Part shown: positions 25,838 through 57,451 of the stretch, one piece after another
How positions within the stretch are numbered: the stretch's first letter is position 1
How the letters are laid out: each line of letters begins with the position of its first letter
NCBI RefSeq assembly: GCF_041886205.1
Contig: NZ_CP169029.1
Length of the DNA stretch: 64,000 bases
DNA from: Escherichia coli
GTDB lineage: Bacteria; Pseudomonadota; Gammaproteobacteria; Enterobacterales; Enterobacteriaceae
Reading direction: 5' to 3' (one strand)
Notes under the pieces: model-generated
The model's input: only the letters and a program-made list of their open reading frames with translations
What the model was told of the DNA's origin: nothing
Database searches by the model: none
Translations under genes and position numbers: made by a program

Positions 25838-25856
25838 ATCCCTTTACCTGGGCAGG

Positions 25857-36779: not shown

Positions 36780-36784
36780 TTGTT

Positions 36785-37680: not shown

Positions 37681-37683
37681 TAG

Positions 37684-37809
37684 TTGAGAATAACTACCTC
37701 AGCTACGACGAGGCGCATGCTTTTGACAGAGAAATGACGGCCTGTCGTAAAGCGGGTGGAGACTGTGGCGATATTCAGAATAAATATGCTGTATTAAGCG
37801 CAGAGAACC
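37684..37809 (+). pseudogene. remnant duplicate of the 5' end of orphan cdiA-CT 1, closed by a TAG
   Basis: 37684-37806 matches 35656-35778 ([45 protein letters not shown]) then TAG. Confidence 0.7.
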
Positions 37810-39173
37810 GACAGAAATAGGATATTGCCGGGCTCAGCCGGGACCCGGAAAACGCCAACGGCAGCATTGCACCGATATTTGACAGGGAGAAAGAGCAGAA
37901 GCGTCTTCAGGAAGCGCAGGTTATCAGCCAGATTAGCGGTCAGATGAGTAACATCGTCATGACGTATGGCGAAACTGAAGCGATGAAAGCAGCCAGGAAA
38001 GAGCATCCTGGCATGAGCGATGCACAGTTGCGGGAGACTCCGGAATACAGAGAGGTCATGAAAGGCTACGGTACGGGCAGTACGCCGCAGATGGTGGTAC
38101 AGGCCATCACAGGCGTGCTGGGCGGACTGAATGCAGGGAATCCGGGGCAGGTACTGGCTGGCGGTCTGAATCCGGCAGTGGCACAGCTTATAAAACAGGC
38201 CACCGGCGATAACCGGGAAGCAAACCTGATGGCTCACGCAGTCTGGGGAGCGCTTGCCGCACAACTGGGCGGAAACAATGCGGCTTCCGGTGCTGCAGGG
38301 GCATTCAGCGGTGAACTTGCAGCCCGGTATATCATTGATAACTACTACGGTGGTCGTACCGATAACCTGAGTGAACAGGAACGTCAGCAAATCAGCATGC
38401 TGGCCACCATTGCCTCAGGTATTGCGGGCGGGCTTGTCGGCAACAGTACAAGTGCTGCCGGTACGGGGGCACAGGCAGGCAGGAACTCGGTTGAGAATAA
38501 TGCGCTGAGTCTGGTTGCCAGAGGCTGTGCGGTCGCAGCACCTTGCAGGACTAAAGTTGCAGAGCAGTTGCTGGAAATCGGGGCGAAAGCGGGCATGGCC
38601 GGGCTTGCCGGGGCGGCAGTCAAGGATATGGCCGACAGGATGACCTCCGATGAACTGGAGCATCTGATTACCCTGCAAATGATGGGTAATGATGAGATCA
38701 CTACTAAGTATCTCAGTTCGTTGCATGATAAGTACGGTTCCGGGGCTGCCTCGAATCCGAATATCGGTAAAGATCTGACCGATGCGGAAAAAGTAGAACT
38801 GGGCGGTTCCGGCTCAGGAACCGGTACACCACCACCATCGGAAAATGATCCTAAGCAGCAAAATGAAAAACCTGTAGATAAGCTTAATCAGAAGCAAGAA
38901 AGTGCGATTAAGAAGATCGATAACACTATAAAAAATGCTCTGAAAGATCATGATATTATTGGAACTCTCAAGGATATGGATGGTAAGCCAGTTCCTAAAG
39001 AGAATGGAGGATATTGGGATCATATGCAGGAAATGCAAAATACGCTCAGAGGATTAAGAAATCATGCGGATACGTTGAAAAACGTCAACAATCCTGAAGC
39101 TCAGGCTGCGTATGGCAGAGCAACAGATGCTATTAATAAAATAGAATCAGCCTTGAAAGGATATGGAATATGA
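37810..39173 (+). CDS. orphan module 3: pretoxin region, VENN and a distinct C-terminal toxin domain, derived from a different cdiA allele
   Basis: ...[26 protein letters not shown]... parallels the main cdiA pretoxin region (34010-34740); VENN within [14 protein letters not shown] track 37944..39173. Confidence 0.7.
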
Positions 39174-39556
39174 TTACCTTACGTAAATTGATTGGAAACA
39201 TCAATATGACAAAAGAGCCTGAGCAACAATCACAGCTTGAACTCTGGTTCGAACGTATCATAGATGTGCCTCTTGAAAAGTTAACAGTGGAAGATCTTTG
39301 CCGCGCTATCCGACAAAATTTATGTATTGATCAGTTGATGCCAAGAGTGTTGGAAGTTCTAACTAAAGAGCCGTTAGCGGGTGAATATTACGATGGTGAA
39401 CTAATTGCAGCTTTATCAACGATAAAAGGAGAAGATCTAAAAGATCAGAAAAGTACCTTTACCCAAATAAGGCAACTTATAAACCAGCTAGAACCGTCAG
39501 ATATTAACGATGATTTAAGAAAAGATATATTAAAAATCAATCAGATAATTGTATAA
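39170..39556 (+). CDS. orphan cdiI immunity 3 (128 aa, soluble)
   Basis: ATGA overlap with the module 3 stop; product [43 protein letters not shown]... Confidence 0.6.
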
Positions 39557-39588
39557 CTAATCCCGGTCACTGAGCCGAGATCTTCTTT

Positions 39589-41380
39589 GTGTGCCGGGCA
39601 TGTTCAGCAGCTCGGGGGTGAAAGTCCCCTGTCCAGCCTGATGGTGGCGAAGGACTAGCGAAGCGCAAGGGCGTCGTCGTAAGGCGGGGTCTGAAGGAAG
39701 CGTGAAGCAAATCCATGACCTGACGAACAGAAATCCGATACGAGGCCTACCCGGTTGGCGGAGCAAGCAAAGAATTGCGAAGGCCATAACCATCAAGAAC
39801 CGGGGGGTAAATCGGACAGGTGTGTGGTGAAGGCGTCTGAACTTACCCCGGGAGGCCTGTCCGTCGTTCTGTATCTAGAACTTAGCGTACCGTAAGGGGC
39901 GCTGACCGGCGGACAGGAGTCAGCAGAGGGCATAGTAGGGCATGACACCCGAAGGCCCGAACGGTAATGAGTGACGAGTATCAACGGAGGTTCTGAACGG
40001 TCATGCAGCAGAAAACGCATCGCGCCCCTGAGGCCGGAGAACGGGGTGAAGCCCCGAACGCCGCCCTTCCGGGGGCTGAAACCGTGCAGGCACCGACGAA
40101 CAGAGAAAGTCCGTCGTCAACAGTGTGGCTGATGGAAGCCATTTGTGAACCAGTCAATCTCAGGCAAGCCCTGAAAAGAGTTAAAGCCAACAAAGGTGCA
40201 GCGGGAGTCGATGGTATGCGCGTAAGCGAACTGCCGGACTACCTGAGGCACCACTGGCCAGAGCTGAAAGCGCAACTACTGTCTGGCAGATACCGCCCAT
40301 CTCCTGTGAGAAGAGTGTCCATACCGAAGCCCGGCGGCGGCGAACGTCTGCTGGACATCCCGACGGTGGTGGATCGCTTCATCCAGCAGGCGATGATGCA
40401 GGTATTGCAGGGGCACTGTGGGATAGCTCGTTCAGCGATAACAGCTACGGGTTCCGTCCCGGTCGTTCGGCCCACCAGGCAGTGATACAGGCCCGGGAAC
40501 ATATCGGGGCCGGGTATCACTGGGTGGTCGACCTCGATCTGGAGAAGTTCTTCGACCGGGTAAATCACGATGTGCTGATGAGCCGGATAGAGAAACGAGT
40601 ATCGGATAAACGGGTGTTGTCACTTATCCGCAGGTTCATGAATGCAGGGGTGATGGACGCAGGTCTGGTAAGGCCGGTGACAGAAGGAACGCCGCAGGGC
40701 GGCCCACTGTCGCCGCTGCTATCGAACCTGCTGCTTGACGACCTCGACAAGGAACTGGAGAAACGTGGTCTGAAGTTCGTGCGGTACGCAGACGACTGTA
40801 ATGTCTACGTGAAAAGCGAACGGGCAGACAACCGGATCATGGCGGGGTTGACGCACTGGCTGAGCCATAAACTGAAGCTGAAGGTCAACGCGAAGAAGAG
40901 TGCTGTAGCACGCCCTGAAACGCGCAAGTTCCCTGGATACAGCTTCATAAGGGGGCGGAAGGTATGGTGCGTGGTATCGCCGGAGTCGATAAAACGGTTC
41001 AAAATGCGGATAAGAGCACTGACCGGACGCAACACAGGGAGAAGCCTTGAACAGCTAACCCGGTTGCTAAAACGATATCTGACGGGCTGGAAAAGTTACT
41101 ACGGGCTGAACCAGAGGCCATCGCTGATGCGAGAGCTGAACGGATGGATAAGGCGCAGTCGAGGCGTAAGCAAGGACCTTGCGGCGCAAACAGCAGGAAG
41201 CTGCCATAAAGAGTGGCGGATAAGCTGTAGTCCGGCACTGAATATAGCACTCCCCAATAATCTGTTCTCCAGACTGGGCCTGCCAGAAGTATAGGCAGGC
41301 GACGATCAACATAACCGAACCGCCGTATACGGCCCCATACGTACGGTGGTGTGGGAGGAAGCTGATCGTGAGATCAGCTC
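39589..41380 (+). mobile_element. bacterial group II intron (about 1.8 kb) with a frameshifted intron-encoded protein
   Basis: 5' GTGTG at 39589; internal ORFs encode reverse-transcriptase motifs including the YADD box; a domain V-like hairpin (ACCGCCGTATACGG...ACGTACGGTGGT) lies near 41318-41350; the 3' boundary is approximate (about 20 bp either way). Confidence 0.7.
40003..41294 (+). pseudogene. group II intron reverse transcriptase/maturase split into two ORFs by a frameshift
   Basis: ORF 40003..40485 ends ...QGHCGIARSAITATGSVPVVRPTRQ while the next frame reads SSFSDNSYGFRPGRSAHQAVIQAREHIG... and continues into ORF 40482..41294, which carries ...FVRYADDCNVYV... Confidence 0.75.
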
Positions 41381-41446
41381 CTATCCCGATTTAACCGTCA
41401 GTCTCCCCCAAAATGCCCGTCCTGGCGCTTGTACACTGGCATATTG

Positions 41447-41535
41447 GCATGATCTTAGCGGCCATCATAGCTAAACTAACGTTTGTAGCGTTAACATGGT
41501 TTCAAAGCGGGATTTTTTAAGTTTTGTGGAATGAT
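41447..41535 (+). pseudogene. partial duplicate of cdiI (matches 35473-35561)
   Basis: GGCATGATCTTAGCGGCCAT[CA]ATA[GA]CTAAACTAACGTTTGTAGCGTTA[AG]CATGGTTTCAAAGCGGGATTTTT shared with the cdiI gene. Confidence 0.6.
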
Positions 41536-41591
41536 GCGTATTTTCATGAAAGGAGATCACTCAATAACTTCCATCGAGATCGGGTAATAAC
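41536..41591. repeat. copy 3 of the unclassified palindromic repeat (left half only), truncated by an IS66-family end
   Basis: GCGTATTTTCATGAAAGGAGATCACTCAATAACTTCCATCGAGATCGGGTAATAAC then GTAAGC of the IS begins at 41595. Confidence 0.6.
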
Positions 41592-41956
41592 ATTGTAAGC
41601 TTCCGGGGAACTCATATTGACGCGTTTTTCAGGCGCGCGTCATCGGCGGCGCATACGAACGATCGTGGTCTGATAACGGTTGATTTATTTTGTTGCACAG
41701 GGGCGATCGCCAGGCAGGTACCGGAGGCGGGCTCTGAAGTACTGAGTAGGGTGATCGCGTCAGGCCGCGAAGTACTGACTCGGGGATTAATGGCAGGTGA
41801 TGATGTACTGACCCGGGAATGACTCCGGGCTGATTCAGGTTCTTATTCGCTGTCAGCCCGTGTGGTTGCTGGTCTGGCTCATTTCCTGTCGTCAGGAGTT
41901 CAACTCCCGACTGCAGGTTATGGCCCGGTGCACGAACACCTGACGGCAGGTATCAC

Positions 41957-43444
41957 TCACCCGGAGAAGGTAAATCCCTCAAGAGGCAGCAACTCTGCCA
42001 GTCGCTCCTCCGGCCACTCCGGCAGACGCATCAGGACGTCTGTCAGCCAGGCATGCGGCTCCAGACCGTTGCGTTTCGCGGTTTCCAGCAAGCTCATTAT
42101 TTGCGCGGCGCGTTCTCCTGCCATCTGCGAACCGGCGAACAGCCACGATTTTCTGCCCAGGACCACGTTTTTGATGGCCCGTTCACACACATTATTATCC
42201 AGCGGCACCGCACCATCTTCCAGGAAGCGGCTTAGTTCCACGCGATGAGACAGCGCATAGACAATGGCTTTGTGTAATGCCCTTCCCGGAGAACATTGCG
42301 GTTCCTGCTCTTCAAGCCATGACCACAGATCTTCCAGTATCGGACGGGCATAACGCTGTCGCCACTGGCGGATTTTTTCCACGGGGCGGCTACTGATCTT
42401 CTTCTCAAGACGGTACAACCCCGCGATTTTCTTCACGGCGATGGCAGCCCGTGGATCTTTACTGATTTTATACAGGTCGGCGAAGCCCCTGCGGGCATGG
42501 GACCAGCATCCGGCCAGCGTGATCTCCGGCACTTTGTTTGCCAGAGTCCGGTAAGCTTTATGTCCGTCGACAACCAGCGTCCCGCCCCAGCCCTGAAGCC
42601 AGTTTTCAGGATACTCATGGCTACGTCCGGTCCGGCAGTTGAAGCACACAACTGACGGTCCCGTCCTTTCTCCACTGACGTATGCCCACAGATAACCGGA
42701 GCAGGATTTACCGCCTTTCTTCGTGTTCAGGAGCTTCAGGGTAGTCTCATCTGCATGCACCACCGGACGGTTTATCAACTCGCGATGGAGTAACGCCGCC
42801 AGGGGAGATAATGCGGCACCCGCCGCGCCAACCATGTCAGCCATCGAACTGACGGGAAGCCCGACATCTGAACGGGCAAAGACCTGTTGCTGGCGATACA
42901 GAGGCAGGTGGTCACCGTATTTATTGATGATCACCTGTGCGATGACTGATGGCTCAACGGCACTTTTCGGGAGGATATGTGCCGGCATTTCACCGCTGAA
43001 CACCTTCTGGCAACAGGGACAACTGTATTGCGGACGGACATAACAGTTCACCACGAAGTGAGCGGGAATATACTCCAGCTTTTCACTCACCGCATCACGG
43101 ATATAGTGCAGCGGCTCGTCACATTCAGGGCAATGGTCAGTGTCCGGCTGGATAATTTTTTCCACCCGTGGAAGATGAGCCGGTAAGGATTTGCGTATCG
43201 GGCGTGAACGGGACGCTTTTTCGTCTTCTTCAGGGGATTGCGGGAGCAGTTTATCCAGATGTGCGGTAAGCGCGGCGATATCGACATCAACATCCTCTTC
43301 GAACAGGGAGCGTTGCATACCAGCCAGCGTTTCACATTTTTTACCGAAGCGCTGTTGACGAACCAGTTTCAGCATTTCTTCCAGAAGCTGGATGCGCCGG
43401 CTTTTCTCCAGTAATTCCCGCTCTTTTTCGGCATTCTCCGACAT
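41957..43444 (-). CDS. tnpC: IS66-family TnpC transposase (495 aa)
   Basis: MSENAEKERELLEKSRRIQLLEE...CPECDEPL...DGAVPLDNNVCERAIKNVVLGRKSWLFAGS... Confidence 0.85.
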   Translation of the reverse strand: MSENAEKERELLEKSRRIQLLEEMLKLVRQQRFGKKCETLAGMQRSLFEEDVDVDIAALTAHLDKLLPQSPEEDEKASRSRPIRKSLPAHLPRVEKIIQPDTDHCPECDEPLHYIRDAVSEKLEYIPAHFVVNCYVRPQYSCPCCQKVFSGEMPAHILPKSAVEPSVIAQVIINKYGDHLPLYRQQQVFARSDVGLPVSSMADMVGAAGAALSPLAALLHRELINRPVVHADETTLKLLNTKKGGKSCSGYLWAYVSGERTGPSVVCFNCRTGRSHEYPENWLQGWGGTLVVDGHKAYRTLANKVPEITLAGCWSHARRGFADLYKISKDPRAAIAVKKIAGLYRLEKKISSRPVEKIRQWRQRYARPILEDLWSWLEEQEPQCSPGRALHKAIVYALSHRVELSRFLEDGAVPLDNNVCERAIKNVVLGRKSWLFAGSQMAGERAAQIMSLLETAKRNGLEPHAWLTDVLMRLPEWPEERLAELLPLEGFTFSG

Positions 43445-43564
43445 GACTTTTTATACCATGGCAAGTGCCATGGCACGCAGTTTTTCGATGTCATTCGTGG
43501 TGTTGAGAGCGGAGATGTCCATACAGGGGAGCATACCACTCCGGATACGGATATTAATTATTTT

Positions 43565-43957
43565 TCAATTAGTTAGCAGTGTATTTTGCGTGTTTTCAGG
43601 GCGCAGTTCAGGTTCATTCTGCCAGACCCATTTCGTCAGGTCATGTCCCTTAACCTGCTGCCAGTCAACACCGGCAATCAGCCAGTTAAACTCGTCGGGA
43701 GTGAGGTGCCAGGCAGCATCATTTGCACATGGCCAGCGGAAGCTGCCTTTGTGCAGACGGCGGGTACACAACCACACCCCGTGTTTATCCCACCGGAGAA
43801 CTTTGATACGCGAACGGGCTTTGTTAACAAAGACGAAGGCGGCTCCCCCATGCCATATCGACCGGAGTTCATCCTGTATATACTGCGTCAGTGCGTCGAT
43901 GCCCCGGCGCATGTCAACAGGTTTAATTGCGATGAAGACATTATCAGGACTGAGCAT
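43565..43957 (-). CDS. tnpB: IS66-family TnpB
   Basis: Start MLSPDNVFIAIKPVDMRRGIDAL within ORF 43565..44251. Confidence 0.75.
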   Translation of the reverse strand: MLSPDNVFIAIKPVDMRRGIDALTQYIQDELRSIWHGGAAFVFVNKARSRIKVLRWDKHGVWLCTRRLHKGSFRWPCANDAAWHLTPDEFNWLIAGVDWQQVKGHDLTKWVWQNEPELRPENTQNTLLTN

Positions 43958-44273
43958 ATTTGAGCGCCCTGAAGACATCGGTAAGTTGTGACGGCTGACA
44001 GCACATCCGTACTCCACCGGGAAGGAGGAGCGTGACTGGCTCATTCGTGACGGGCTGTGGTACATCAGCATGCAGTGGTGGCGCAATATGAACGGGAAGA
44101 ACGGTCGGTTCATTTGCCCGGCGTTCAGCTTTTGCGACATCCTGCGGCCATTCGCGAAGTGATGTGAAGGGAATATCGTTGAGTTCACAGTATTGCTGAC
44201 GTGTAAGACCACTGGCGCGCCAGGCAGCACGTTGCTGCCTTTTCTGTTCAATGGTCCATCGGGGTTTTGACAT
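43944..44273 (-). CDS. tnpA: IS66-family TnpA
   Basis: 109 aa, MSKPRWTIEQKRQQRAAWRASGLTRQQYCELNDIPFTSLREW... Confidence 0.8.
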   Translation of the reverse strand: MSKPRWTIEQKRQQRAAWRASGLTRQQYCELNDIPFTSLREWPQDVAKAERRANEPTVLPVHIAPPLHADVPQPVTNEPVTLLLPGGVRMCCQPSQLTDVFRALKYAQS

Positions 44274-44357
44274 TGATTATCTCCGGTAAGTTGGTGAATG
44301 AATGTCGGTAATGCTAACTGACTGAAAATCTCTGTGAAGATGACTTCCCCGTAACGA

Positions 44358-45413
44358 CACCTTCTTTATCGCCTGCCGAATGACGCTGTTCAGCGATTCG
44401 ATGGCATTCGTCGTGTAGATGGCCTTGCGGATATCCGGTGGGTAACCGAAGAAGGTGTTGAGATTTTCCCAGTGTGTGCGCCAGCTCTTGCTGATTTGCG
44501 GGTATTTTTTATCCCAGACGCCTGCAAACTTATCCAACGCCATCAACGCAGCTTCCTCTGTCGGGGCCTGATATACCGCTTTCAGCCCGCTGGTGACGGC
44601 TTTGTAATCCTTCCACGACACGAATTTCAGGCTGTTGCGCACCATATGGATGATGCAGAGCTGAATATGCGTCTGCGGGTATACGCTATTTATCGCTTCC
44701 GGGAAGCCTTTCAGGCCGTCCACGCAGGCAATCAGGATGTCCTGAAGGCCACGATTTTTCAGCTCAGTCAGTACACCCAGCCAGAACTTTGCACCTTCAT
44801 TTTCTGCCAGCCACATACCCAGCAGCTCTTTCTGACCGTCGGTATTGATGCCCAGCGCGAGGAACACCGCTTTGTTAATGACACTCCCGCCGTGACGAAC
44901 CTTAACCACAATACAGTCAAGATAAACAATGGGATACAGTGCATCCAACGGTCGGTTTTGCCATTCAGAGACCTGTTCTTTAACCGCATCGGTCACTTTG
45001 GATATCAGCGTGGGCGAGACATCGGCGTCGTACATTTCTTTGAACGTGGCAACGATTTCCCGCGTAGTCATGCCTTTGGCATACAGGGACAAAATCTGGC
45101 TGTCCATCTGGGTGATGCGTGTCTGATGCTTCTTAATTAGTTGCGGTTCGAAGGTATTTTCACGGTCACGCGGCGTGTTAAGTTCGATCTCGCCATCATC
45201 GCACAATACCGTTTTTGACGAGTAGCCATTACGGGTATTAGAGCCTGATTTAGGAGCATTTTTCTCATGACCGAGATGGTCAGTCAGTTCTGCATTGAGC
45301 GCCGTTTCGACGGTAAGCTTTGTCAACATGCGTGAAAACTGGTTGAGGTCGGCTTCGGTTTTAAGGCCTTTGGCCAGTTCAGCCGCAAGAGCTTTAAGTT
45401 TCTTTTCGTCCAT
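44358..45413 (-). pseudogene. IS256-family transposase, 3'-truncated by IS66-family element 4
   Basis: ORF 44277..45413: MDEKKLKALAAELAKGLKTEADLNQF...; the native sequence ends at ...AIKK and the last 25 codons are read from the IS66 terminal repeat. Confidence 0.75.
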
Positions 45414-45718
45414 CGTTTGCCTGTCTCCGTTGTTGGAGTGAACATATCAAAAACAGGCAATTACACAATTTTAATTACAGTCTCTTCGGTTATTAACGAA
45501 ACTCAACAATAGCGCCTGGTTGTGAAACCAGTTTAACCATTTGAAGCTTAAACTCATTTGAAAATGATCTGCGGGGTTTTGCAGATAATGTTTTCTGTTC
45601 CATAACAGGTGTCCACTAGTTTTGAAGGTGGGCACCTACGTTACCAATACTGGCTTAATGTGTATTAGCTCAGACCTGATCTGACAGTTACCGGTTATTT
45701 ATACAGGTATCTGTCAGA

Positions 45719-46759
45719 TTACATCTGGCTTAAATTTTTCTCGACCCAGATGCGTTTTCCATCAAGTAACGTTTCCATTGGCGTCCGCCCATTGCACATT
45801 TTTCCCTGATGGGTTCGCTCATTATTATAGTGAGCCAGCCATTCATCAAGATCCGACTGTAATGTATCAAGATCGCCGTACAGTTTTTTACGGAACGTTA
45901 CCTGATAAAATTCGTTCAGGATTGTTTTATGGAACCGCTCGCAGATGCCGTTGGTCTGCGGGGACATCGCCTTTGTTTTCGTGTGTTCTATATCGTTTAT
46001 TGCCAGATAAAGCTGATAATCATGCTGCTCTACTTTGCCACAGTACTCCGTGCCTCTGTCGGTCAGTATTCTCAGCATCGGCAGGCCCTGAGACGCATAA
46101 AACGGCAGTACACGATCATTCAGTAAGTCAGCTGCGGTAATCGGTGTTTTGGTGACGTAAAGCTTACAGTGAGCCACTTTCGAGTACGTATCAACGAACG
46201 TCTGCTGATAAATACGCCCGACACCTTTCAGGTTGCCTACATAGAACGTGTCCTGCGAACCCAGATATCCAGGATGAGCCGTTTCGATTTCGCCACAGGC
46301 CTCGTCATCACTGGCTTTACGCTCCAGTGCTGCGATCTGGCTGTCAGTTAGCTCAATGCCATCACGGGCTACTTTTTCTTCCAGTGCTTTCAGACGTTTT
46401 TTGAAATTCTCAAGGTTATGGCGTAACAAGACAGAACGGACACCACTGCCGGAGATAAAAACGCCCTGTTTACGCAGCTCGTTGCTGGTCCGGTGCTGAC
46501 CGTGTGCCGGGAAAGCGACGGCGTAATCAACAACAGCCTGTTCAGTTGCCTCATCGGTACGGTTCTTAAGGTTAGGAGCGCGGCGACTACGATTAATCAG
46601 CGCATCCACACCGCCTTCATCGACCAGTTCGCGGTAACGATAAAACGTATCACGCGAAACGCCCATGATTTTACAGACTTTTGATTCGTTGCTGAGTTCT
46701 TCCGCCAGATTGAGCAAACCGGCTTTGTGTTTGATAACGGGATTGGTAGTATGAAGCAT
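45719..46759 (-). CDS. single-ORF DDE (integrase-core) transposase, IS481-family-like
   Basis: ORF 45719..46804; N-terminal HTH (...KVCKIMGVSRDTFYRYRELV...) and integrase-core region (...LTDRGTEYCGK...SPQTNGICERFHKTI...). Confidence 0.6.
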   Translation of the reverse strand: MLHTTNPVIKHKAGLLNLAEELSNESKVCKIMGVSRDTFYRYRELVDEGGVDALINRSRRAPNLKNRTDEATEQAVVDYAVAFPAHGQHRTSNELRKQGVFISGSGVRSVLLRHNLENFKKRLKALEEKVARDGIELTDSQIAALERKASDDEACGEIETAHPGYLGSQDTFYVGNLKGVGRIYQQTFVDTYSKVAHCKLYVTKTPITAADLLNDRVLPFYASQGLPMLRILTDRGTEYCGKVEQHDYQLYLAINDIEHTKTKAMSPQTNGICERFHKTILNEFYQVTFRKKLYGDLDTLQSDLDEWLAHYNNERTHQGKMCNGRTPMETLLDGKRIWVEKNLSQM

Positions 46760-46936
46760 GAGAGTTACCTCGTGTTTTGTATAAGGATTCGACACCCATA
46801 TCAAAACCGGTAACTCTCAACCTTTCAAGGCTCAGTGTTAGCGCCAATGATATAAGACAGTAATTCACCATTTGAATTGTCCGCTCCACCCAACATGTTG
46901 TTTCCTTGAGGTTCTCACACCAGAAAGGACATCAAC

Positions 46937-48906
<1,970 letters not shown>

Positions 48907-48992
48907 TCAAACAGCGGACATTAAAAATGGCGAAACGGTCATAAATCCTGGCGTTGACATCAGTGTCAGATCAAGTCGCGACTAATACACTT

Positions 48993-49024
48993 AATGGCTA
49001 CATACGGCGGTCAGTTTACGCTTA
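48993..49024. repeat. solo copy of the 32-bp IS66-type terminal sequence ATGGCTACATACGGCGGTCAGTTTACGCTTAC
   Basis: Identical to 13959..13990 (the terminus of IS66-family element 1) but flanked by unrelated sequence on both sides. Confidence 0.6.
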
Positions 49025-49317
49025 CGAAAGGACGAACTTTTCTAAGGGCTTTTTTCCTTAAGTGGGGCTTGGATATTCGGAGTGGATTGTATTTAAAACG
49101 AATATCCAAGCAATCAAACTCTAGTCTACAAAACACATAAATTCATGCACGTATCCATCCATGCTGTAGATAATCAGCTGTGATAATAGCAGCCGCTACT
49201 GAAGCAATTGAATGGAAAGCGTCGTCTTTTGTGCGTAACCGGCTCATTTAAACCGTCTGGTCTGTTTCCTCCGGCTCTACAAAAATAATGTCCATCATTT
49301 TTAATGGACACTATCGT

Positions 49318-49536
49318 ATGAAACACCGGACCTGGATCACTGAAGCTTTACGTCTTCACTTTGAAGAACATTTACCCCGGGTTGTGGCCGGGCGTCGCCT
49401 GGGTGTACCAAAATCAACAGTTTGTAGTATGTTCGTGCGCTTTCGGAGAGCTGGCCTTTCGTGGCCTTTGCCCGCAGGCATGTCGGAGCAGGAACTTGAT
49501 GCCTGCCTTTACGGACAATTTTCCACGGTACCAGTC
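49318..49536 (+). pseudogene. possible N-terminal fragment of an IS21-family IstA-like HTH, read in frame with the next tnpA
   Basis: MKHRTWITEALRLHFEEHLPRVVAGRRLGVPKSTVCSMFVRFRRAGLSWPLPAGMSEQELDACL resembles IS21-family IstA N-termini; it lies inside ORF 49288..49965. Confidence 0.35.
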
Positions 49537-49572
49537 GTACGTCCTGAAAGCACCGTTATATCCGAAGCCCCC

Positions 49573-49965
49573 GTGGTAAAAAAACGTCCCCGGCGGCCCA
49601 ACTTCCCTTATGAGTTTAAAATCGCCTTAGTGGAGCAGTCACTGCAGCCCGGAGCCTGTGTGGCGCAGATCGCCCGGGAAAACGGAATCAACGATAACCT
49701 GCTCTTCAACTGGCGCCATCAATACCGGAAAGGTGGCCTGCTGCCTTCCGGAAAAAATATGCCGGCACTGCTTCCCGTGACGTTAACGCCGGAGCCGGAT
49801 AATAAAATCCCGGCCCCCGCACAGGAACCAGAGCAGATAAATACACCGTCCGACAGTCTGTGTTGTGAGCTGGTTCTGCCGGCCGGAACTCTCAGGCTTA
49901 AAGGTAAACTGACGCCGGCGTTATTACAGACACTTATCCGCGAAATAAAAGGGAGCAGCCACTGA
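49573..49965 (+). CDS. tnpA: IS66-family TnpA (GTG start assumed)
   Basis: ...KKRPRRPNFPYEFKIALVEQSLQPGACVAQIARENGINDNLLFNWRHQY...; in-frame GTG at 49573. Confidence 0.65.
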   Translation: MVKKRPRRPNFPYEFKIALVEQSLQPGACVAQIARENGINDNLLFNWRHQYRKGGLLPSGKNMPALLPVTLTPEPDNKIPAPAQEPEQINTPSDSLCCELVLPAGTLRLKGKLTPALLQTLIREIKGSSH

Positions 49966-50312
49966 TGATATCTCTCCCTGCAGGTTCGCGTATCTGGCTG
50001 GTTGCAGGTATCACCGATATGCGAAATGGCTTTAACGGCCTGGCATCAAAAGTTCAGAACGTCCTGAAGGATGACCCGTTCTCCGGACACCTGTTCATCT
50101 TCCGCGGACGCCGGGGTGACCAGATAAAAGTGTTGTGGGCTGACAGTGACGGACTGTGCCTCTTCACCAAACGCCTGGAGCGGGGCCGCTTCGTCTGGCC
50201 AGTCACCCGTGACGGCAAGGTGCACCTTACTCCGGCTCAGTTATCCATGCTTCTTGAAGGTATCAACTGGAAGCACCCGAAACGAACGGAACGCGCTGGA
50301 ATCCGCATATAA
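49965..50312 (+). CDS. tnpB: IS66-family TnpB
   Basis: 115 aa, [31 protein letters not shown]... Confidence 0.85.
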   Translation: MISLPAGSRIWLVAGITDMRNGFNGLASKVQNVLKDDPFSGHLFIFRGRRGDQIKVLWADSDGLCLFTKRLERGRFVWPVTRDGKVHLTPAQLSMLLEGINWKHPKRTERAGIRI

Positions 50313-50331
50313 CCCGTTGTAAAGTGAGGAT

Positions 50332-51903
50332 ATGGACACCTCACTTGCTCATGAGAACGCCCGCCTGCGGGCACTGTTGCAGACGCAACAGGACACCATC
50401 CGCCAGATGGCTGAATACAACCGCCTGCTCTCACAGCGGGTGGCGGCTTATGCTTCCGAAATCAACCGGCTGAAGGCGCTGGTTGCGAAACTGCAACGTA
50501 TGCAGTTCGGTAAAAGCTCAGAAAAACTTCGTGCAAAAACCGAACGGCAGATACAGGAAGCACAGGAGCGAATCAGCGCACTTCAGGAAGAAATGGCGGA
50601 AACGCTGGGTGAGCAATATGACCCGGTACTGCCATCCGCCCTGCGCCAGTCTTCAGCCCGTAAACCGTTACCGGCCTCACTTCCCCGTGAAACCCGGGTT
50701 ATCCGGCCGGAAGAGGAATGCTGTCCTGCCTGTGGTGGTGAACTCAGTTCTCTGGGATGTGATGTGTCAGAGCAACTGGAGCTTATCAGCAGCGCCTTTA
50801 AGGTTATCGAAACACAACGTCCGAAACAGGCCTGTTGCCGGTGCGACCATATCGTGCAGGCACCAGTACCTTCAAAACCCATTGCACGCAGTTATGCCGG
50901 AGCGGGGCTTCTGGCCCATGTTGTCACCGGGAAATATGCAGACCATCTGCCGTTATACCGCCAGTCAGAAATATACCGTCGTCAGGGAGTGGAGCTGAGC
51001 CGTGCCACACTGGGGCGCTGGACAGGTGCTGTTGCTGAACTGCTGGAGCCGCTGTATGACGTCCTGCGCCAGTATGTGCTGATGCCCGGTAAAGTCCATG
51101 CTGATGATATCCCCGTCCCGGTCCAGGAGCCGGGCAGCGGTAAAACCCGGACAGCCCGGCTGTGGGTCTACGTCCGTGATGACCGTAACGCCGGTTCACA
51201 GATGCCCCCGGCGGTCTGGTTCGCGTACAGTCCGGACCGGAAAGGTATCCATCCACAAAATCACCTGGCCGGTTACAGCGGTGTGCTTCAGGCCGATGCT
51301 TACGGTGGTTACCGGGCGTTATACGAATCCGGCAGAATAACGGAAGCCGCGTGTATGGCTCATGCCCGGAGAAAAATCCACGATGTGCATGCAAGAGCGT
51401 CCACCTACATCACCACGGAAGCCCTGCAGCGTATCGGTGAACTGTATGCCATCGAGGCAGAGGTCCGGGGCTGTTCAGCAGAACAGCGTCTGGCGGCAAG
51501 AAAAGCCAGAGCCGCGCCACTGATGCAGTCACTGTATGACTGGATACAGCAACAGATGAAAACACTGTCGCGTCACTCAGATACGGCAAAAGCGTTCGCA
51601 TACCTGCTGAAACAGTGGGATGCACTGAACGTGTACTGCAGTAATGGCTGGGTGGAAATCGACAACAACATCGCAGAGAACGCCTTACGGGGAGTGGCCG
51701 TAGGCCGGAAAAACTGGATGTTCGCGGGTTCCGACAGCGGTGGTGAACATGCGGCGGTGTTGTACTCGCTGATCGGCACATGCCGTCTGAACAATGTGGA
51801 GCCAGAAAAGTGGCTGCGTTACGTCATTGAACATATCCAGGACTGGCCGGCAAACCGGGTACGCGATCTGTTGCCCTGGAAAGTTGATCTGAGCTCTCAG
51901 TAA
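50332..51903 (+). CDS. tnpC: IS66-family TnpC transposase (523 aa)
   Basis: Full length with CPACGGEL motif and conserved C-terminal ...[28 protein letters not shown]... Confidence 0.85.
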
Positions 51904-51906
51904 ATA

Positions 51907-53367
51907 TCAATACGGTTCTGACGAGTCGCTTACTTTTGTGCTGTCGCCAAAATCACTAATCCCTCTCACAATAAGCGCTGGAACTCCCTGCTTTTCGCAG
52001 GCATCAAATACCCCATAGGCTTCCATTTCGGCAACACAGGCTTTGTCATGAAGCGACCTGAAACGTTCTAGTAAAGCAGGATCGCGGATAAGAAGCTCTC
52101 CTGATGCGATAGTGGCTGAAGAAACAATTATCCCAGCAGCTACGTCTCCAGCCTGCGAATTTTCAGGCATTTCGAGTCCTATAGCCTGTGCCCGTTCGCC
52201 AAGACGTGCGGATAGTGACGTTGTTGCAAGGTAAGTATTGAGGTTTTGTTTAGTTGGCATATGGAGACATAATATTTCAGGTCGAGGAGCAAACTTCCCA
52301 CCTTCTAATGCGGCTGCACTTTCATAATAAATGACACGCTCAGAAATAATGACTTCACCTAGCACCATTTTTTCTCTCAACCCCGCCGCAATCCCCATCA
52401 TCAAGACTTTTTGGGGTTTGAATTCCGACAACAACATGGTAGTAATAGCTGAAGCATTCACATTTCCAGCACTAGCGAAAGACGCCACTATGCCAGTTAC
52501 TGGGCCATCTGAGCGTTGTATGGATGTGGACCAGAAATGTATTCCATTTGATGTGAGCCGCGGAGATTCATCATCAGCTATGCCAAATACTTTCTTGGCT
52601 GCAGCAAGTTCAACTGGTAGAGCTGTCAAAATCAACACATTTGGAGTATGCAGCAACTGTTGTGCAGCCCATTCAGCTTTAAGCAATTCAACTGCGATTT
52701 CTGAAAGTCGTTCCAGTCCATAGTAAGGTTCCTGTAACGATAAAGTGTCGAGCTGATTTTTTACGGCTTCACCGGTGCAAGGGAACATAGACAGCGGCTC
52801 TGCATAAAAACGTGCATGTAGGCCTAAAGCACCTTTTCCGTCATCGCAAATTCCCCCAAGCTCCAAGTCAAACGGTAATATGGGGTGGTTGGCTTTACGC
52901 ATTTTACTCGCACGATCGGAAACGCCTTTTCCTCCACCTAATGCAATCATGGCTGTGGCAGCATCAACCTGCTCGCTTCCAATATTTCCTCCAGTAATGA
53001 GATCATCATCTAGATAGCTGACATCAGCAAATCTAGCTGCCTGAAGTTTACGAATAAGCATCCGATTCTCTTCAGACATTTTCTCCCGCATTGCAGAACG
53101 CGACGTGACGATCTTGAGTTGGTGGGCTGGCGTATAATTCTCCATTAAATCTACAGCTTCTTTTACTATCGTCCAGTCGAAGGTCAGGAGATCCCCATTT
53201 TCATTAACAGGTTCTCCTGCCAAATAGACAACTAGTCCCACATTTGCATCAAGGATGCTCTTCGTCAATGCTCGAACGAAACTATGTGCTCGATCAATAT
53301 AAAGTTTTTCTGTATTTTTGGATATACTTCCAGCGATCAGAACATACTCATTATTAGTATTTGTCAT
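51907..53367 (-). CDS. two-domain defence-effector candidate: N-terminal Rossmann-like putative ligand-sensing domain (SLOG-like?) fused to a C-terminal nucleoside-phosphorylase (PNP/MTA-nucleosidase) domain; the 3' end is replaced by IS66 terminal sequence
   Basis: ORF 51907..53382, ATG at 53367. C-terminal half ...KVLMMGIAAGL...GEVIISERVIYYES...CVAEMEAYGVFDACEKQGVPALIVRGISDFGDSTK is phosphorylase-like; N-terminal half has ...YVLIAGSIS...VGLVVYLAG...IALGGGKGV... The last 8 codons (VSDSSEPY) are read from the reverse complement of the IS66-5 terminal repeat. Confidence 0.6.
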   Translation of the reverse strand: MTNTNNEYVLIAGSISKNTEKLYIDRAHSFVRALTKSILDANVGLVVYLAGEPVNENGDLLTFDWTIVKEAVDLMENYTPAHQLKIVTSRSAMREKMSEENRMLIRKLQAARFADVSYLDDDLITGGNIGSEQVDAATAMIALGGGKGVSDRASKMRKANHPILPFDLELGGICDDGKGALGLHARFYAEPLSMFPCTGEAVKNQLDTLSLQEPYYGLERLSEIAVELLKAEWAAQQLLHTPNVLILTALPVELAAAKKVFGIADDESPRLTSNGIHFWSTSIQRSDGPVTGIVASFASAGNVNASAITTMLLSEFKPQKVLMMGIAAGLREKMVLGEVIISERVIYYESAAALEGGKFAPRPEILCLHMPTKQNLNTYLATTSLSARLGERAQAIGLEMPENSQAGDVAAGIIVSSATIASGELLIRDPALLERFRSLHDKACVAEMEAYGVFDACEKQGVPALIVRGISDFGDSTKVSDSSEPY

Positions 53368-53396
53368 CACAATTCTTCCCAAAGGAGTATTACTTG

Positions 53397-54296
53397 TTAC
53401 TGTTTAAGTAAGGCATAGATTTCATCCTTGTTTTTTAATGCTAACTGTAATGCTTCCGGCGCCTGATGTGACTGAGTCTCTGTAAGATTTAACTGGAAAA
53501 GAAGGTAGTGCAGCAAAGCTTGTCGGCATTCCAGATGGATTTCTCCGTCGATCATTGCATAATCTCTCTCAATAAGGTTTCGTTGAGCAAGGCATAGTCC
53601 AGGATGCGCTATAAGAATAATTTTGATGAATGTATTCCACGCTAAATCACCATTAGCCCTCTCTTCATCGGGTCCGGCGTTTTGTGCCTGCACTATTCGC
53701 GACAATAAAAAGTCCCTATATTCACCACGTTTATGACACCATGCTCTTGTGTGCCAGCGATAACCATCATGGACTAATGAATGAGGAGTCAAGGTTCGTT
53801 TACTGCCTTGAGGGTCACTCATGGATTGATAAATAACATGAACAGCCTCATTTTCACGTATAGCTCGTAATATTTGACTTACGACATCAGTGTCCAGTCT
53901 ACGTAACAGTCGTGGAACCGCTGCAACGGGTGAGCGCCAGCCCAGAAAGCTTCCAAAATGAATTTCAGGTTGTATTGCCACTCGCAGCAAATCATTCAGA
54001 TAACATTCCAGAGAGCTGGTCATATAAACTGGCTGAAACAATTTCGTTGAACGGTAAACTCGGGAACTCATATCGTACTCAAGATTATCGGGGGCTAACT
54101 TAGTATATTCACTAAGATCCAGCGAAGCTTGAGGTACTGATATGCCGAAAAAATCAGTGAGGCTGCTACGATTGATTTGCCCATCCCATCGAAGTCGATA
54201 ATCAATAAATTCAAGCCGACGCTCTTGGCCCCATCTCGCACCTTGCCGTCCTTTTTGGCTGTCTTGCTTATCCCCTTCTCTAAAGTTATCTGGCAT
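53397..54296 (-). CDS. WYL-domain transcriptional regulator (CapW/BrxR-like)
   Basis: 299 aa; WYL-type core ...DGYRWHTRAWCHKRGEYRDFLLSRIV...; stop is 29 nt upstream of the phosphorylase-gene start; divergent from the CBASS operon. Confidence 0.65.
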   Translation of the reverse strand: MPDNFREGDKQDSQKGRQGARWGQERRLEFIDYRLRWDGQINRSSLTDFFGISVPQASLDLSEYTKLAPDNLEYDMSSRVYRSTKLFQPVYMTSSLECYLNDLLRVAIQPEIHFGSFLGWRSPVAAVPRLLRRLDTDVVSQILRAIRENEAVHVIYQSMSDPQGSKRTLTPHSLVHDGYRWHTRAWCHKRGEYRDFLLSRIVQAQNAGPDEERANGDLAWNTFIKIILIAHPGLCLAQRNLIERDYAMIDGEIHLECRQALLHYLLFQLNLTETQSHQAPEALQLALKNKDEIYALLKQ

Positions 54297-54395
54297 CTTA
54301 GTTCCCGGTAGCGTATAAAAAATATCTCAATATAAAAAGTAGACGCAGAATAAAAACTGAACGTATAATAATGCTACGCTATAGGGCGGTAAGGT

Positions 54396-54433
54396 GCAAC
54401 CATCACCTCAGTCACTTCTGAGGTGATGGTTGC
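54396..54433. promoter_or_regulatory. perfect 16-bp inverted repeat with 6-bp spacer (GCAACCATCACCTCAG-TCACTT-CTGAGGTGATGGTTGC); candidate operator in the divergent promoter region
   Basis: Lies between the WYL gene start (54296) and the nucleotidyltransferase start (54466), 32 bp upstream of the latter. Confidence 0.5.
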
Positions 54434-54465
54434 AGTTTTCATGAATGATCTTCGGAAGGATGTGA

Positions 54466-55410
54466 ATGCCACTCACTAATACTCAGATCCGATACTACGA
54501 CAGCAATGTACTGCGTTTGCCTAAGGATAAGCGTGAAACCTACAATGCCCAAGTAGATCGGCTTATTACAGCGTTACGTAAAAAACTGAAAGATCAGGAT
54601 AAAATAACAATAAAACGTGTCGTTAAAGCTGGTTCGTTTGCTAAACACACTATTCTACGCAAAACCTCAGACAGTCAGGTCGATGTGGATGTTGTGTTTT
54701 ACGTTAGTGGAGAGAAAGTTGCTGAGGAAACCTTCGCAAGCCTGAGCGAAAAAATTTACGAAGCCTTACTTAAAATGTATCCCAACAAAGCTGTAGAAGA
54801 TTTCGAGATTCAACGTAAGGCTGCTACTGTTTCTTTTGTCGGGACTGGATTAGATGTTGATATTGTTCCCGTCATCGAAAATCCGGACAAAGAAGGCTAT
54901 GGATGGCAGTTTGACCGTATCGATGGTTCGAAGACAGAGACTTGTGCTCCTTGCCAGATCAAATTTGTGAAAGATCGCAAAGACCAAGACCCGGACTTTC
55001 GTACTTTAGTACGCTTAGCTAAACGTTGGCGTACCAACATGGAATGCCCACTTAAGTCATTTCATATAGAACTAATCATGGCTCATGTACTAGAAGTCAA
55101 TGGAAAAGATGGTTCGTTGGAGAAGCGATTTCGGGATTTTCTACTGTACATTGCTGAATCAGGATTAAAAGAAGTTATCACCTTCCCTGAAAATAGCACT
55201 ATACCAGCATTTTCCCATCCAGTTGTCATACTGGATCCTGTTTGCGATACGAACAACGTTACCAGCCGTATTACCGAGGATGAGCGAAAAGAGATCGTCC
55301 GGATTGCTGAGGAAAGTTGGGCGACGGCAAATTTTGCGTCGGTAGAAGGAGACTATGATATCTGGAAGGAGCTGTTTGGTCGTTCATTTAAAGTGGAGGA
55401 TACAGCATGA
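54466..55410 (+). CDS. cGAS/DncV-like nucleotidyltransferase (CBASS CD-NTase), 314 aa
   Basis: GGAAGGA RBS; nucleotidyltransferase signature ...VKAGSFAKHTILRKTSDSQVDVDVVFYV... (GS motif and acidic DVD); first gene of a four-to-five-gene operon. Confidence 0.7.
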   Translation: MPLTNTQIRYYDSNVLRLPKDKRETYNAQVDRLITALRKKLKDQDKITIKRVVKAGSFAKHTILRKTSDSQVDVDVVFYVSGEKVAEETFASLSEKIYEALLKMYPNKAVEDFEIQRKAATVSFVGTGLDVDIVPVIENPDKEGYGWQFDRIDGSKTETCAPCQIKFVKDRKDQDPDFRTLVRLAKRWRTNMECPLKSFHIELIMAHVLEVNGKDGSLEKRFRDFLLYIAESGLKEVITFPENSTIPAFSHPVVILDPVCDTNNVTSRITEDERKEIVRIAEESWATANFASVEGDYDIWKELFGRSFKVEDTA

Positions 55411-55895
55411 GTTACTCCTCAACTGAAACATCGACTTATACCACAACAGACGTTGAAGCAGTCATGCGACGCATCACAGCTGACTTAGTGATGATTGCCG
55501 CCAGTACCGGTGCGATAACTGAATCAAAAGCACGTGAGTATGCTCACGATATAGAACTCTTAGCAAAAAATGGATATCTGGATTACGTCGATGTGACCCT
55601 TATAAGCAATGGCGTTGAACAGAAAGCAACCCGGTTTCATGTGAATGAGTCCGGAGAATTGGCAAATGACAGACCTGGAGACGCTCGTTGGCCGAGAATT
55701 CAGGGGGCTTATCTGCGGATTGTTGTGAACAACCGGAGTACCTACGATCAGGCTGCGAGGCAAAAGCTTTCAGGTAAGATGAAAATATCGTGGTCGCCAT
55801 GTAGTGATGACATCAGTCATTCAGGTTTGACCCAAAGTGGTGGTCGTGAATATTCCAGCAATGGTTATGGTATGCAACGTAAGGATTACAATTAA
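55407..55895 (+). CDS. small CBASS accessory protein, HORMA-like by position (162 aa)
   Basis: ATGA overlap with the nucleotidyltransferase gene; size and position between CD-NTase and AAA+ ATPase match Cap7-type HORMA proteins; no motif can be verified by eye. Confidence 0.45.
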   Translation: MSYSSTETSTYTTTDVEAVMRRITADLVMIAASTGAITESKAREYAHDIELLAKNGYLDYVDVTLISNGVEQKATRFHVNESGELANDRPGDARWPRIQGAYLRIVVNNRSTYDQAARQKLSGKMKISWSPCSDDISHSGLTQSGGREYSSNGYGMQRKDYN

Positions 55896-56791
55896 TGAGC
55901 AAGAGTAGTGTTTTCGACTCAGTGATTGATTTACCGCAGCGCGAACTGACAGAGCGAGAGAACATTTTACTTGGCTTTGAAAGTCGTTATGAGAGTGTCC
56001 ACAACCAACTCAACCTGCTGCTTAACCAAGGGCAACTCCTTGACTGGAGCAAGAAGTACCATAAGAGCGTTTTACCGCTCTGCAAGCTCGTTGCTGAGCA
56101 GTATCCGCTTGTTATTTTTCATGGTGATGTAGGAACAGGTAAAACAGCAACTGCTGAGTGCATCGCGAATCGTCTTGTCCGCGAGTCTCGCACTGAAGAT
56201 TCGGCCCTCTTTAAGCTCAGCAATCGGGTCCGTGGTTCCGGAAAAGTGGGGGAGATGGGGACGCTACTAACTCAGGCATGGGCAGAAGTGTGCGAGGCTG
56301 CGGGTAAAAATCGCAGAGCAATACTGATTATTGATGAAGGGGATTCAATTGCAGCTTCCCGTTCTCAAAACCACAGCCATCATGAAGATAAAGTAGCAGT
56401 AAATACTTTAATTCAAGGAGTGGATGAGCTACGAAAATTTGGCGGCCGGGTTGTGGTAATTTTATGTACTAATAGACTATCCGTCCTTGACCCTGCACTT
56501 CGTAGGCGAGCAGCGATTGTCGAAGAATTTACTCGCCCCGGGCTCACAGAACGAGAATCGCTTTTTCGCATGGATCTTGGAGGGATGGGATTGTCAGATA
56601 GTCAATATCGTCAACTAGCGGTGGCAACTGGTGAGAAAGAAAATCTGCCAGCATGGACATACTCTGATATCCGTACGCGCCTCTATCCCGCAGCAATGTC
56701 AAGAGCGTTTCCTGAACGGGCTTTAAGTTTTAATGATTTGATGGAATTATTGAAAATAATGAGGCCTTCCCCCGTCATGGGAGATATATAA
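55895..56791 (+). CDS. AAA+ ATPase, TRIP13/Pch2-like (Cap6-like), 298 aa
   Basis: Walker A GDVGTGKTATAECIANRL, Walker B ILIIDEGD; start overlaps the preceding stop. Confidence 0.6.
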   Translation: MSKSSVFDSVIDLPQRELTERENILLGFESRYESVHNQLNLLLNQGQLLDWSKKYHKSVLPLCKLVAEQYPLVIFHGDVGTGKTATAECIANRLVRESRTEDSALFKLSNRVRGSGKVGEMGTLLTQAWAEVCEAAGKNRRAILIIDEGDSIAASRSQNHSHHEDKVAVNTLIQGVDELRKFGGRVVVILCTNRLSVLDPALRRRAAIVEEFTRPGLTERESLFRMDLGGMGLSDSQYRQLAVATGEKENLPAWTYSDIRTRLYPAAMSRAFPERALSFNDLMELLKIMRPSPVMGDI

Positions 56792-56887
56792 GGCCCCATT
56801 TCTTAATCAACTGATATACTATAAAAATCAACTCCAATTCCGGTACATTTGTTGATTTACGGTGCACTTCTTGCAAGCAGGAACTAT

Positions 56888-57451
56888 ATGAGAACTGATA
56901 AAGAAATTTTCGTTTCAGTTGATGTGGAAACATCAGGCCCTATTCCGGGGAAATACAGTATGTTATCGATAGGTGCTTGTGTGGCATTTGAACCATCAAA
57001 GCAATTTTCATGTTACCTTAAACCGATATCTGAAGATTTTATCCCTGCGGCTATGGAAGTGACTGGGTTATCGCTGGAGAAGTTGCACGTCGATGGTTTG
57101 GATCCTGTTGATGCAATGGTTCAATTTAAAGAATGGATTAATTCGGTCGTAAAGGAAGATGAGACTGTAGTTTTTGTTGGTTTCAATGCTTCATTTGACT
57201 GGAGCTTTATTAATTATTATTTCCATGTATATTTAGGTGATAATCCTTTTGGCATCGCAGCACTCGATATAAAATCAATGTATTTTGGCGTTTCTCACGC
57301 CTCATGGAGATTAACACGTTCTAGTGAAATAGCGAAAGTTGTCAAACCTGAGACATATGGTGATCATGATGCATTACATGATGCCCGATATCAGGCTGAA
57401 CTATTCCGGTTGATCGATAAATTGAGCGAGAAGAAAAAATTAGATCGATGA
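56888..57451 (+). CDS. DEDD-family 3'-5' exonuclease (DnaQ-like; CBASS Cap18-like accessory)
   Basis: Exo motifs [10 protein letters not shown] (DxE) and ...[10 protein letters not shown]...; ATG at 56888 with GCAGGA RBS (ORF track start 56849 is a TTG). Confidence 0.6.

Follow-up and report, generated by a model that had tools for sequence, protein, structure and literature searches.

In a 64,000-nucleotide stretch of Escherichia coli DNA (assembly GCF_041886205.1, contig NZ_CP169029.1; hereafter the window), we find that the 10,339 bp between positions 41595 and 51933 are very probably, to judge by their sequence, a pile of seven insertion sequences (IS), all known and partly nested in one another: three of the IS66 family, two of the IS21 family, one of the IS256 family and one of the IS481 family. 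The tract is ~98% IS DNA and lies in a genomic island, at the joint of a decayed contact-dependent growth inhibition (CDI) locus and an island that encodes a type III cyclic oligonucleotide-based antiphage signalling system (CBASS). Most of it reads as an orderly nest of simple insertions with a recoverable order, and in this strain an intact copy of ISCro1 splits cap17, the gene for the CBASS effector. The identities, boundaries, target duplications, empty sites and relative order of these elements can be observed directly, and together they describe ordinary island decay, a kind of feature already known and with no new type of element.

Every large open reading frame (ORF) of the tract encodes a transposase or a transposition helper, and searches with Pfam and NCBIfam recover IS66-, IS256-, IS481- and IS21-family transposase genes with scores far above the curated cut-offs; at the DNA level the elements are 94-100% identical to named or annotated E. 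coli elements (Table 1). A first-pass annotation of the window had described a cluster of two IS66-family elements, a truncated IS256-like transposase, an IS481-like transposase and IS21 here, packed end to end, with no cargo genes and no clean target duplications. The cluster is real, the families are those it named, and both outer coordinates are exact IS66-family termini, that of an ISEc49-like element on the left and that of ISCro1 on the right. Cargo is absent as well: non-IS bases amount to 235 of the 10,339 (2.3%; 45486-45511 and 49026-49234), no non-IS gene lies between 41595 and 51933, and the other ORFs of at least 60 residues all overlap transposase genes on the opposite strand. The packing is end to end only in part, as the IS21-like element is nested in the IS481-family element and the latter in an IS66 end remnant, and the lack of duplications holds for ISEc49 and the truncated ISEc39 but not for ISCro1, the IS21-like element or IS481, all of which have perfect ones.

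The nest is built on the left end of an IS66-family element that resembles ISEc23. Once rejoined, 45512-45659 and 48996-49027 form a sequence that runs unbroken in thousands of genomes, where it lies at the tnpA-proximal end of IS66-like elements (93-95% identity), and 48994-49025 has exactly the sequence found at window 13957-13988, where another IS66 element ends. The two pieces are held apart by an IS481-family element that reassembles to 1,203 bp and matches uninterrupted copies from position 1 to 1203 in 76 genomes (98-99% identity), with 27-nt inverted repeats (45660-45686 and 48964-48990) and a perfect 5-bp duplication, TTAAT (45655-45659 and 48991-48995). Its rve-type DDE transposase scores 289 bits with transpos_IS481 (cut-off 224; E = 4e-86), and its empty site is seen in the thousands of genomes in which the IS66 end runs unbroken across that position. 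The IS21-like element sits between the left inverted repeat of IS481 and the start codon of the IS481 transposase; its ends are of the TG...CA type (TGTTAGCGCC...GGCGTTGACA) and are bounded by a perfect 4-bp duplication, TCAG (46832-46835 and 48960-48963), within the 4-8 bp usual for the IS21 family, its istA, for a DDE transposase, and the istB that follows, for an AAA+ helper, match transpos_IS21 (E = 4e-84) and IS21_help_AAA (E = 6e-88), and the uninterrupted IS481 copies in the same 76 genomes confirm both its boundaries and its empty site. By this nesting, the IS481 insertion must precede that of the IS21-like element. As an autonomous element, IS481 has probably been disabled by the latter, since its transposase gene is now separated from its left terminal inverted repeat.

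The first-pass annotation also placed a possible IstA fragment between IS21 and ISCro1, and this we do not find. The interval concerned, 48907-49287, is fully assigned to other pieces, namely the IS21 end, the IS481 inverted repeat, the duplication, the IS66 end, a 117-bp spacer, the 3' end of cap17 and the end of ISCro1, and the next ORF, of 225 residues at 49288-49965, is the TnpA of ISCro1.

IS66-family elements have inverted repeats that start with GTAA and generate an 8-bp target duplication. The ISCro1 copy shows all of these features: ends GTAACCGGC... and ...GTCGCTTAC (GTAACC...CGCTTAC), tnpA, tnpB and tnpC with full-length domains (IS66_access_TnpA, an NCBIfam profile, E = 1e-88; TnpB_IS66, E = 5e-40; transpos_IS66, E = 2e-143), and a perfect 8-bp duplication, TTTTGTGC (49227-49234 and 51934-51941). 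The nearest complete genome is that of E. coli ZYB39 (NZ_CP098234.1), which is 100% identical to the window over 37791-49234 and differs from it by one mismatch over 51933-64000; it has no ISCro1 at cap17, its gene is unbroken there and encodes an intact protein of 505 residues, and a single 8-bp copy restores the gene in the window. No complete E. coli genome contains the ISCro1::cap17 junction, in that no record covered at least 80% of the query. Since the absence of ISCro1 is almost the only way in which ZYB39 departs from the window here, we read the ISCro1 insertion as the latest event in the tract and one confined to this strain. ISCro1 is carried elsewhere by ZYB39, at 98.5% identity to the copy described here.

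Across ~61 kb the two genomes differ by four IS insertions and 15 mismatches, an example of how, in near-identical strains, the number of IS insertions can come close to that of point mutations. Two of the four are found in the window, ISCro1 in cap17 and an IS4-family element in cdiA, and two in ZYB39, a second ISCro1 at window 37791-37798, in the opposite orientation to the window's copy, and IS100 at 10650-10656. The IS4-family element in cdiA (~29554-30892, 1.34 kb) encodes a transposase of 372 residues and has perfect inverted repeats of 26 bp, a duplication of ~10 bp (GGAACTATCC) and ends that we take to resemble those of IS186.

ISCro1 breaks cap17 after K478, from which translation runs on through VSDSSEPY to a stop codon within the terminus of ISCro1. 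The intact ZYB39 protein has the same residues 1-478, and the last 27 codons lie intact ~2.7 kb from the body of the gene, in DNA that is 100% identical to ZYB39 cap17 (23144-23235 of the retrieved ZYB39 locus) and translates to DDAFHSIASVAAAIITADYLQHGWIRA followed by a stop. The 3' end of the effector gene, earlier called destroyed, has only been displaced, and because the missing codons are intact, the wild-type sequence would return if ISCro1 and a single duplication copy were removed.

The Cap17 protein acts as an ATP nucleosidase; D472A/N substitution in it abolishes defence, and its PNP domain is toxic when expressed alone (bioRxiv 10.1101/2022.01.04.474952; 10.1101/2023.01.24.525353). 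The truncated protein retains the sensor domain (Cap17-like_N, E = 3e-65) and D472, which lies six residues before the break and aligns with the catalytic aspartate of solved methylthioadenosine/S-adenosylhomocysteine (MTA/SAH) nucleosidases, assuming an offset of 10 tag residues in 1jys; the PNP_UDP_1 match ends at profile position 201 of 233. Residues 479-505 align with a segment that we take to be the C-terminal helix of the MTA/SAH nucleosidases. With this helix missing and eight foreign residues in its place, function has likely been lost, and we propose that the truncated Cap17 would be misfolded or inactive, so that the CBASS would still signal and would no longer kill infected cells. 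As cap17 is the last gene of a capW-cap17 transcription unit, downstream CBASS genes should be unaffected; the other six match their intact ZYB39 copies, with one mismatch in 12 kb. The suggestion that the insertions may be inactivating defence functions thus stands for one gene, hit by one recent insertion with a probable loss of function, and not for the rest of the island.

A type III CBASS of this kind combines CD-NTase, HORMA and TRIP13 genes with the regulator CapW and the effector Cap17, in which a sensor domain is joined to a PNP nucleosidase. The type assignment of the system rests on its Cap17-like_N plus PNP_UDP_1, WYL and SMODS domains in the upec-117 gene order, which it shares with the upec-117 and KTE188 type III systems. 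The upec-117 system that was cloned and tested corresponds to CP054230.1 69873-76528 (bioRxiv 10.1101/2022.01.04.474952; 10.1101/2023.01.24.525353), and the window is 99.2% identical to that locus at the DNA level over 12 kb (CBASS at 14182-20326 of the retrieved stretch). The difference is that the tested systems have the full Cap17 of 505 residues, whereas the window gene is interrupted after K478. The CBASS adjoining the tract, at window 53397-57700, comprises Cap17, CapW, CdnC, Cap7, Cap6, Cap18 and Cap19. Farther downstream, an IS3 pseudogene and an integrase fragment are followed by genes for an AAA-domain protein of 1,652 residues and a hypothetical protein of 515 residues (~56986-63491; ZYB39 locus 30987-37492). 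All four complete genomes with this CBASS have both genes conserved alongside it, and the pair may represent a further defence system.

On the left side of the tract, the outermost member is an ISEc49-like element that matches full-length copies in 180 genomes exactly from 41595 to 44360 (98.0-98.6% identity) and has both termini and the tnpA-tnpB-tnpC set of the IS66 family. Its tnpC is interrupted in frame by a stop at codon 36, which is also recorded in the PGAP annotation. No 8-bp target duplication surrounds it, the flanks being ATAACATT and CTTCTTTA, and strain RM8082, which has the same left junction, likewise lacks one; judging from these flanks, the element is an IS66 member that, where it now lies, is no simple insertion. 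Next to it, homology to ISEc39 (99.5-99.6% identity to intact copies in ~450 genomes) spans 44361 to 45485/6. The encoded protein matches Transposase_mut (E = 3e-111) and positions 1-315 of the 338 of transpos_IS256, and PGAP notes a 'missing C-terminus'; at the ISEc49 junction both the second inverted repeat and the 3' part of the gene have been lost, so this copy falls short of a full Mutator-type gene between two inverted repeats and is a family member by homology, truncated. With no duplication for either ISEc49 or ISEc39, a deletion or recombination event happened there, and the joint at 44360/44361 is the sole scar of this sort that we recognise clearly within the tract.

Immediately outside the tract, ISEc49 cuts off 60 bp of the left end of ISEc12. 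This sequence occurs with 100% identity in ~1,800 E. coli genomes and starts with TG as IS21-family ends do. In all four loci inspected, ISEc12 istA follows it 134 bp downstream, and the flanks diverge at the point where the sequence starts. As it is dispersed, with copies near 11.9 kb and 18.5 kb, a miniature inverted-repeat transposable element or a small RNA was also considered and rejected: Rfam gives no match, and in the four loci it is the left end of ISEc12. Further ISEc12 left-end remnants lie elsewhere in the island on the minus strand, at 11863-11923, 18484-18574 and 996-1028; compared with the remnant near 18.5 kb, the one near 11.9 kb lacks an internal segment.

Table 1. Elements and genes in and beside the IS tract, with window coordinates.
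Feature	Coordinates	Strand	Remarks
Group II intron, full length, 1,802 bp	39589-41390	+	directly downstream of orphan cdiI; outside the tract
ISEc12 (IS21 family) left-end remnant, 60 bp	41535-41594	+	cut off by ISEc49; just outside the tract start at 41595
ISEc49-like IS66-family element, 2,766 bp	41595-44360	-	both ends present; assigned from full-length copies and IS66 domains
ISEc49-like genes	tnpA 43944-44273; tnpB 43565-43957; tnpC 41957-43558	-	Pfam/NCBIfam
ISEc39 (IS256 family) remnant, 1,125 bp	44361-45485	-	left end and first 351 codons retained
IS66-family (ISEc23-like) left-end remnant, inner 148 bp	45512-45659	-	split from the terminal 30 bp by IS481
IS481-family element, main part	45660-46835	-	right inverted repeat and transposase gene of 346 codons (45719-46759)
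IS21-like element, 2,124 bp	46836-48959	+	istA 46937-48109 and istB 48109-48906, both intact
IS481-family element, detached left inverted repeat	48964-48990	-	
IS66-family left-end remnant, terminal 30 bp (...GCTTAC)	48996-49025	-	oldest shared boundary feature
Displaced 3' end of cap17	49143-49234	-	codons 479-505 and stop, including the left duplication copy 49227-49234
ISCro1-family IS66 element, 2,699 bp	49235-51933	+	three intact genes: tnpA 49288-49965, tnpB 49965-50312, tnpC 50332-51903
Truncated cap17 (CBASS ATP-nucleosidase effector)	51907-53367	-	codons 1-478 (53367-51934), eight IS codons and stop

Comparison with related genomes extends this reading to both edges of the tract. On the CBASS side, the IS66 end remnant lies 117 bp downstream of cap17 in each of the four complete genomes with this CBASS (ZYB39, EcPF14, SCU-101 and FDAARGOS_1262). 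In the window and ZYB39 it has received IS481 30 bp from its terminus; in the other three an IS3-family element has entered it independently, at 69 bp from the terminus, and the IS3 element of EcPF14 carries an ISEc21 insertion of its own. The 34-bp piece 45626-45659 was not found by blastn-short in the CP054230.1 locus or a third retrieved locus, and we rely on a megablast alignment that spans it. On the CDI side, the junction of the ISEc12 stump with ISEc49 is present in 14 of 5,426 E. coli genomes, with three different right-hand partners: the full ISEc49 followed by the ISEc39 remnant and CBASS (window and ZYB39), the full ISEc49 followed by an IS66 tnpC fragment and a dnd/dpt cluster (RM8082), or only 67 bp of ISEc49 followed by an arginine-deiminase (arc) cluster (12 genomes, e.g., strains 1303 and Z142-6). 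The RM8082 cluster is a dndBCDE-dptFGH phosphorothioation defence system, at 15366-26861 of the retrieved locus, in place of the CBASS. Since a shared remnant has taken up different IS and the junction partners vary, repeated insertion and deletion at this boundary, as the first-pass annotation had suggested, is well supported, and the duplication-free joint between ISEc49 and ISEc39 points the same way.

We propose that ordinary DDE transposition would have built up the tract, the targets being DNA of earlier IS origin and hence free of selection, and that at least one IS-associated deletion or recombination would have contributed. In the first step, an IS66-family element would have lain 117 bp downstream of cap17, of which the left end alone remains, in every genome with this CBASS. 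ISEc39 would have come next to this remnant in the lineage of the window and ZYB39, and ISEc49, already beside the 60-bp ISEc12 stump at the CDI locus, would have been joined to the interior of ISEc39; lacking a duplication, that joint would be the deletion or recombination scar that united the CDI and CBASS regions. A third step would be the insertion of IS481 30 bp from the IS66 terminus (TTAAT), and a fourth that of the IS21-like element into the interval between the inverted repeat and the start codon of IS481 (TCAG). The most recent, in this strain only, would be the insertion of intact ISCro1 into cap17 (TTTTGTGC), which splits the gene after codon 478.

Several points weigh against this reconstruction or leave it incomplete. 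The ISEc39 and ISEc49 events may have come before or after the IS481 and IS21 events, and the duplication-free joint may have arisen either by an adjacent deletion or by recombination between IS copies. The 26 bp at 45486-45511 fit no element; element names were taken from the PGAP annotation of matching copies, not from ISfinder; and the length of ISCro1 is given in one paper as 2,824 bp, compared with 2,699 bp here. With its catalytic aspartate and whole sensor domain kept, the truncated Cap17 possibly has residual or altered activity.

Among other explanations, the one that survives best, and that we still consider unlikely, is that the ISCro1 hit in cap17 was adaptive, for example as an escape from self-killing through loss of a toxic abortive-infection effector, and that the ISEc12/ISEc49 joint is a recurrent point of cargo exchange. 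The toxicity of the PNP domain when expressed alone, the rapid turnover of IS here and the fact that one left-hand junction leads into CBASS, the dnd/dpt cluster or the arc cluster according to strain are all consistent with it. The interrupted allele is, however, a single one, and since cap17 is intact in all four complete CBASS genomes there is no sign of parallel loss, while three junction variants in 14 genomes are equally explicable by neutral deletions. We give slightly less credence again to its fullest form, in which the joint of the ISEc12 stump and ISEc49 would be an IS-scaffolded exchange point that swaps CBASS, dnd/dpt and arc blocks, and ISCro1 in cap17 a selected switch-off of a costly effector, restorable at the sequence level, and not neutral decay.

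It is also improbable, and more so, that dead IS fragments simply lie end to end here, as a heap owed mainly to deletions that has no intact insertion footprints and erodes the defence island generally. Of the five larger elements, three show a perfect duplication and have an empty site that was verified, the genes of ISCro1 and the IS21-like element are all intact, and cap17 is the sole defence gene touched, the rest of the island differing from ZYB39 by one mismatch in 12 kb; what such a heap would account for is the left side and the stumps, that is, ISEc49 with its tnpC stop and no duplication, ISEc39 with its 3' end lost, and ISEc12 and one IS66 element surviving as 60 bp and 178 bp only.

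We see very little chance that a functional composite transposon makes up part of the tract, in which case paired IS would move the DNA between them or the CBASS. Two IS66-family elements do bracket the tract, but they are different elements (in a self-comparison, 41595-44360 and 49235-51933 show no similarity passing E = 1e-5), enclose only IS DNA and share no duplication flanking the pair; IS481 with the IS21-like element inside it keeps both inverted repeats and an intact transposase gene and could in principle move as a 3.3-kb unit, yet this unit is found at this one site only, in ZYB39 and the window. Finally, an assembly artefact, by collapse or mis-joining of repeated IS copies in misassembly-prone, IS-rich DNA with several IS66-family copies in the window, can be dismissed almost entirely, since the same arrangement, in identical order and at 100% identity over 37791-49234, is found in the independent complete genome of ZYB39, and the strain-specific ISCro1 has perfect ends and a perfect duplication, with removal giving an intact cap17.

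The pile-up of known IS that we favour has close parallels. In E. coli ST131, ISCro1, IS1 and ISEc10 have inserted at one site upstream of afaA (PMC8764528), and in clade C of the same sequence type ISEc12 splits tssM with a 5-bp duplication (PMC10711316). As here, IS types of the same names split or silence genes by simple insertion with duplications, different IS repeatedly hit one short stretch, and the history is read from junctions and empty sites; here, by contrast, a gene for a phage-defence effector is hit, old IS DNA makes up the hotspot itself, and the case is known from sequence alone. Set against the families as ISfinder and PGAP catalogue them, IS66 (ISCro1, ISEc49), IS21 (the IS21-like element, ISEc12), IS481 and IS256 (ISEc39), the gene content, termini, lengths and duplication sizes are the norm; what departs from it is the tnpC stop and missing duplication of ISEc49 and the truncation of ISEc39, ISEc12 and one IS66 element, and the elements themselves offer no novelty.

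Current understanding of IS biology or of CBASS is unchanged by this locus, to which the useful additions are the nested order and a recent, cleanly footprinted hit on a characterised effector. It illustrates, at the level of single bases, how old IS DNA absorbs further insertions. Its main value is to annotation: defence-system finders would still report a CBASS here despite the IS-split effector. The strain also supplies a natural, testable variant of Cap17 shortened at its C terminus, in a system near-identical to the one used in the laboratory.

Mobile DNA is nearly continuous from 39589 to 51933, as a group II intron precedes the tract. It comprises RNA domains I-IV and V/VI and an ORF for a reverse transcriptase (RT)/maturase in domain IV: Rfam matches are group-II-D1D4-3 (130 bits) and D1D4-1 (50 bits), with domain V/VI at 41318-41390 scoring 33.6 bits, below the gathering score of 40. 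The RT/maturase gene, with RVT_1 and GIIM domains, is split by a frameshift into 40003-40485 (160 residues) and 40482-41294 (270 residues), so the intron is probably immobile. Introns with an intact ltrA, on plasmids, match exactly 39589-41390 at 87% identity, and the same insertion is present in nine other complete E. coli genomes at no less than 99.7% identity. The ORFs at 40003-41294 are annotated by PGAP as a 'reverse transcriptase domain-containing protein'; that at 40482-41294 was considered as a defence RT (a retron or DRT) ruined by the IS tract and rejected, as Rfam and Pfam both identify a group II intron maturase.

The CDI orphan-module region contains a perfect 138-bp direct repeat (35654-35791 and 37681-37818) and an 89-bp repeat of 95.5% identity (35471-35559 and 41442-41530), which are probably conserved joints between cdiA-CT/cdiI modules; the second ISCro1 of ZYB39 falls inside the second copy of the 138-bp repeat. 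Elsewhere within the island, 8159-8282 on the plus strand matches the Rfam family STnc490, an Hfq-binding small RNA, with 141.7 bits.

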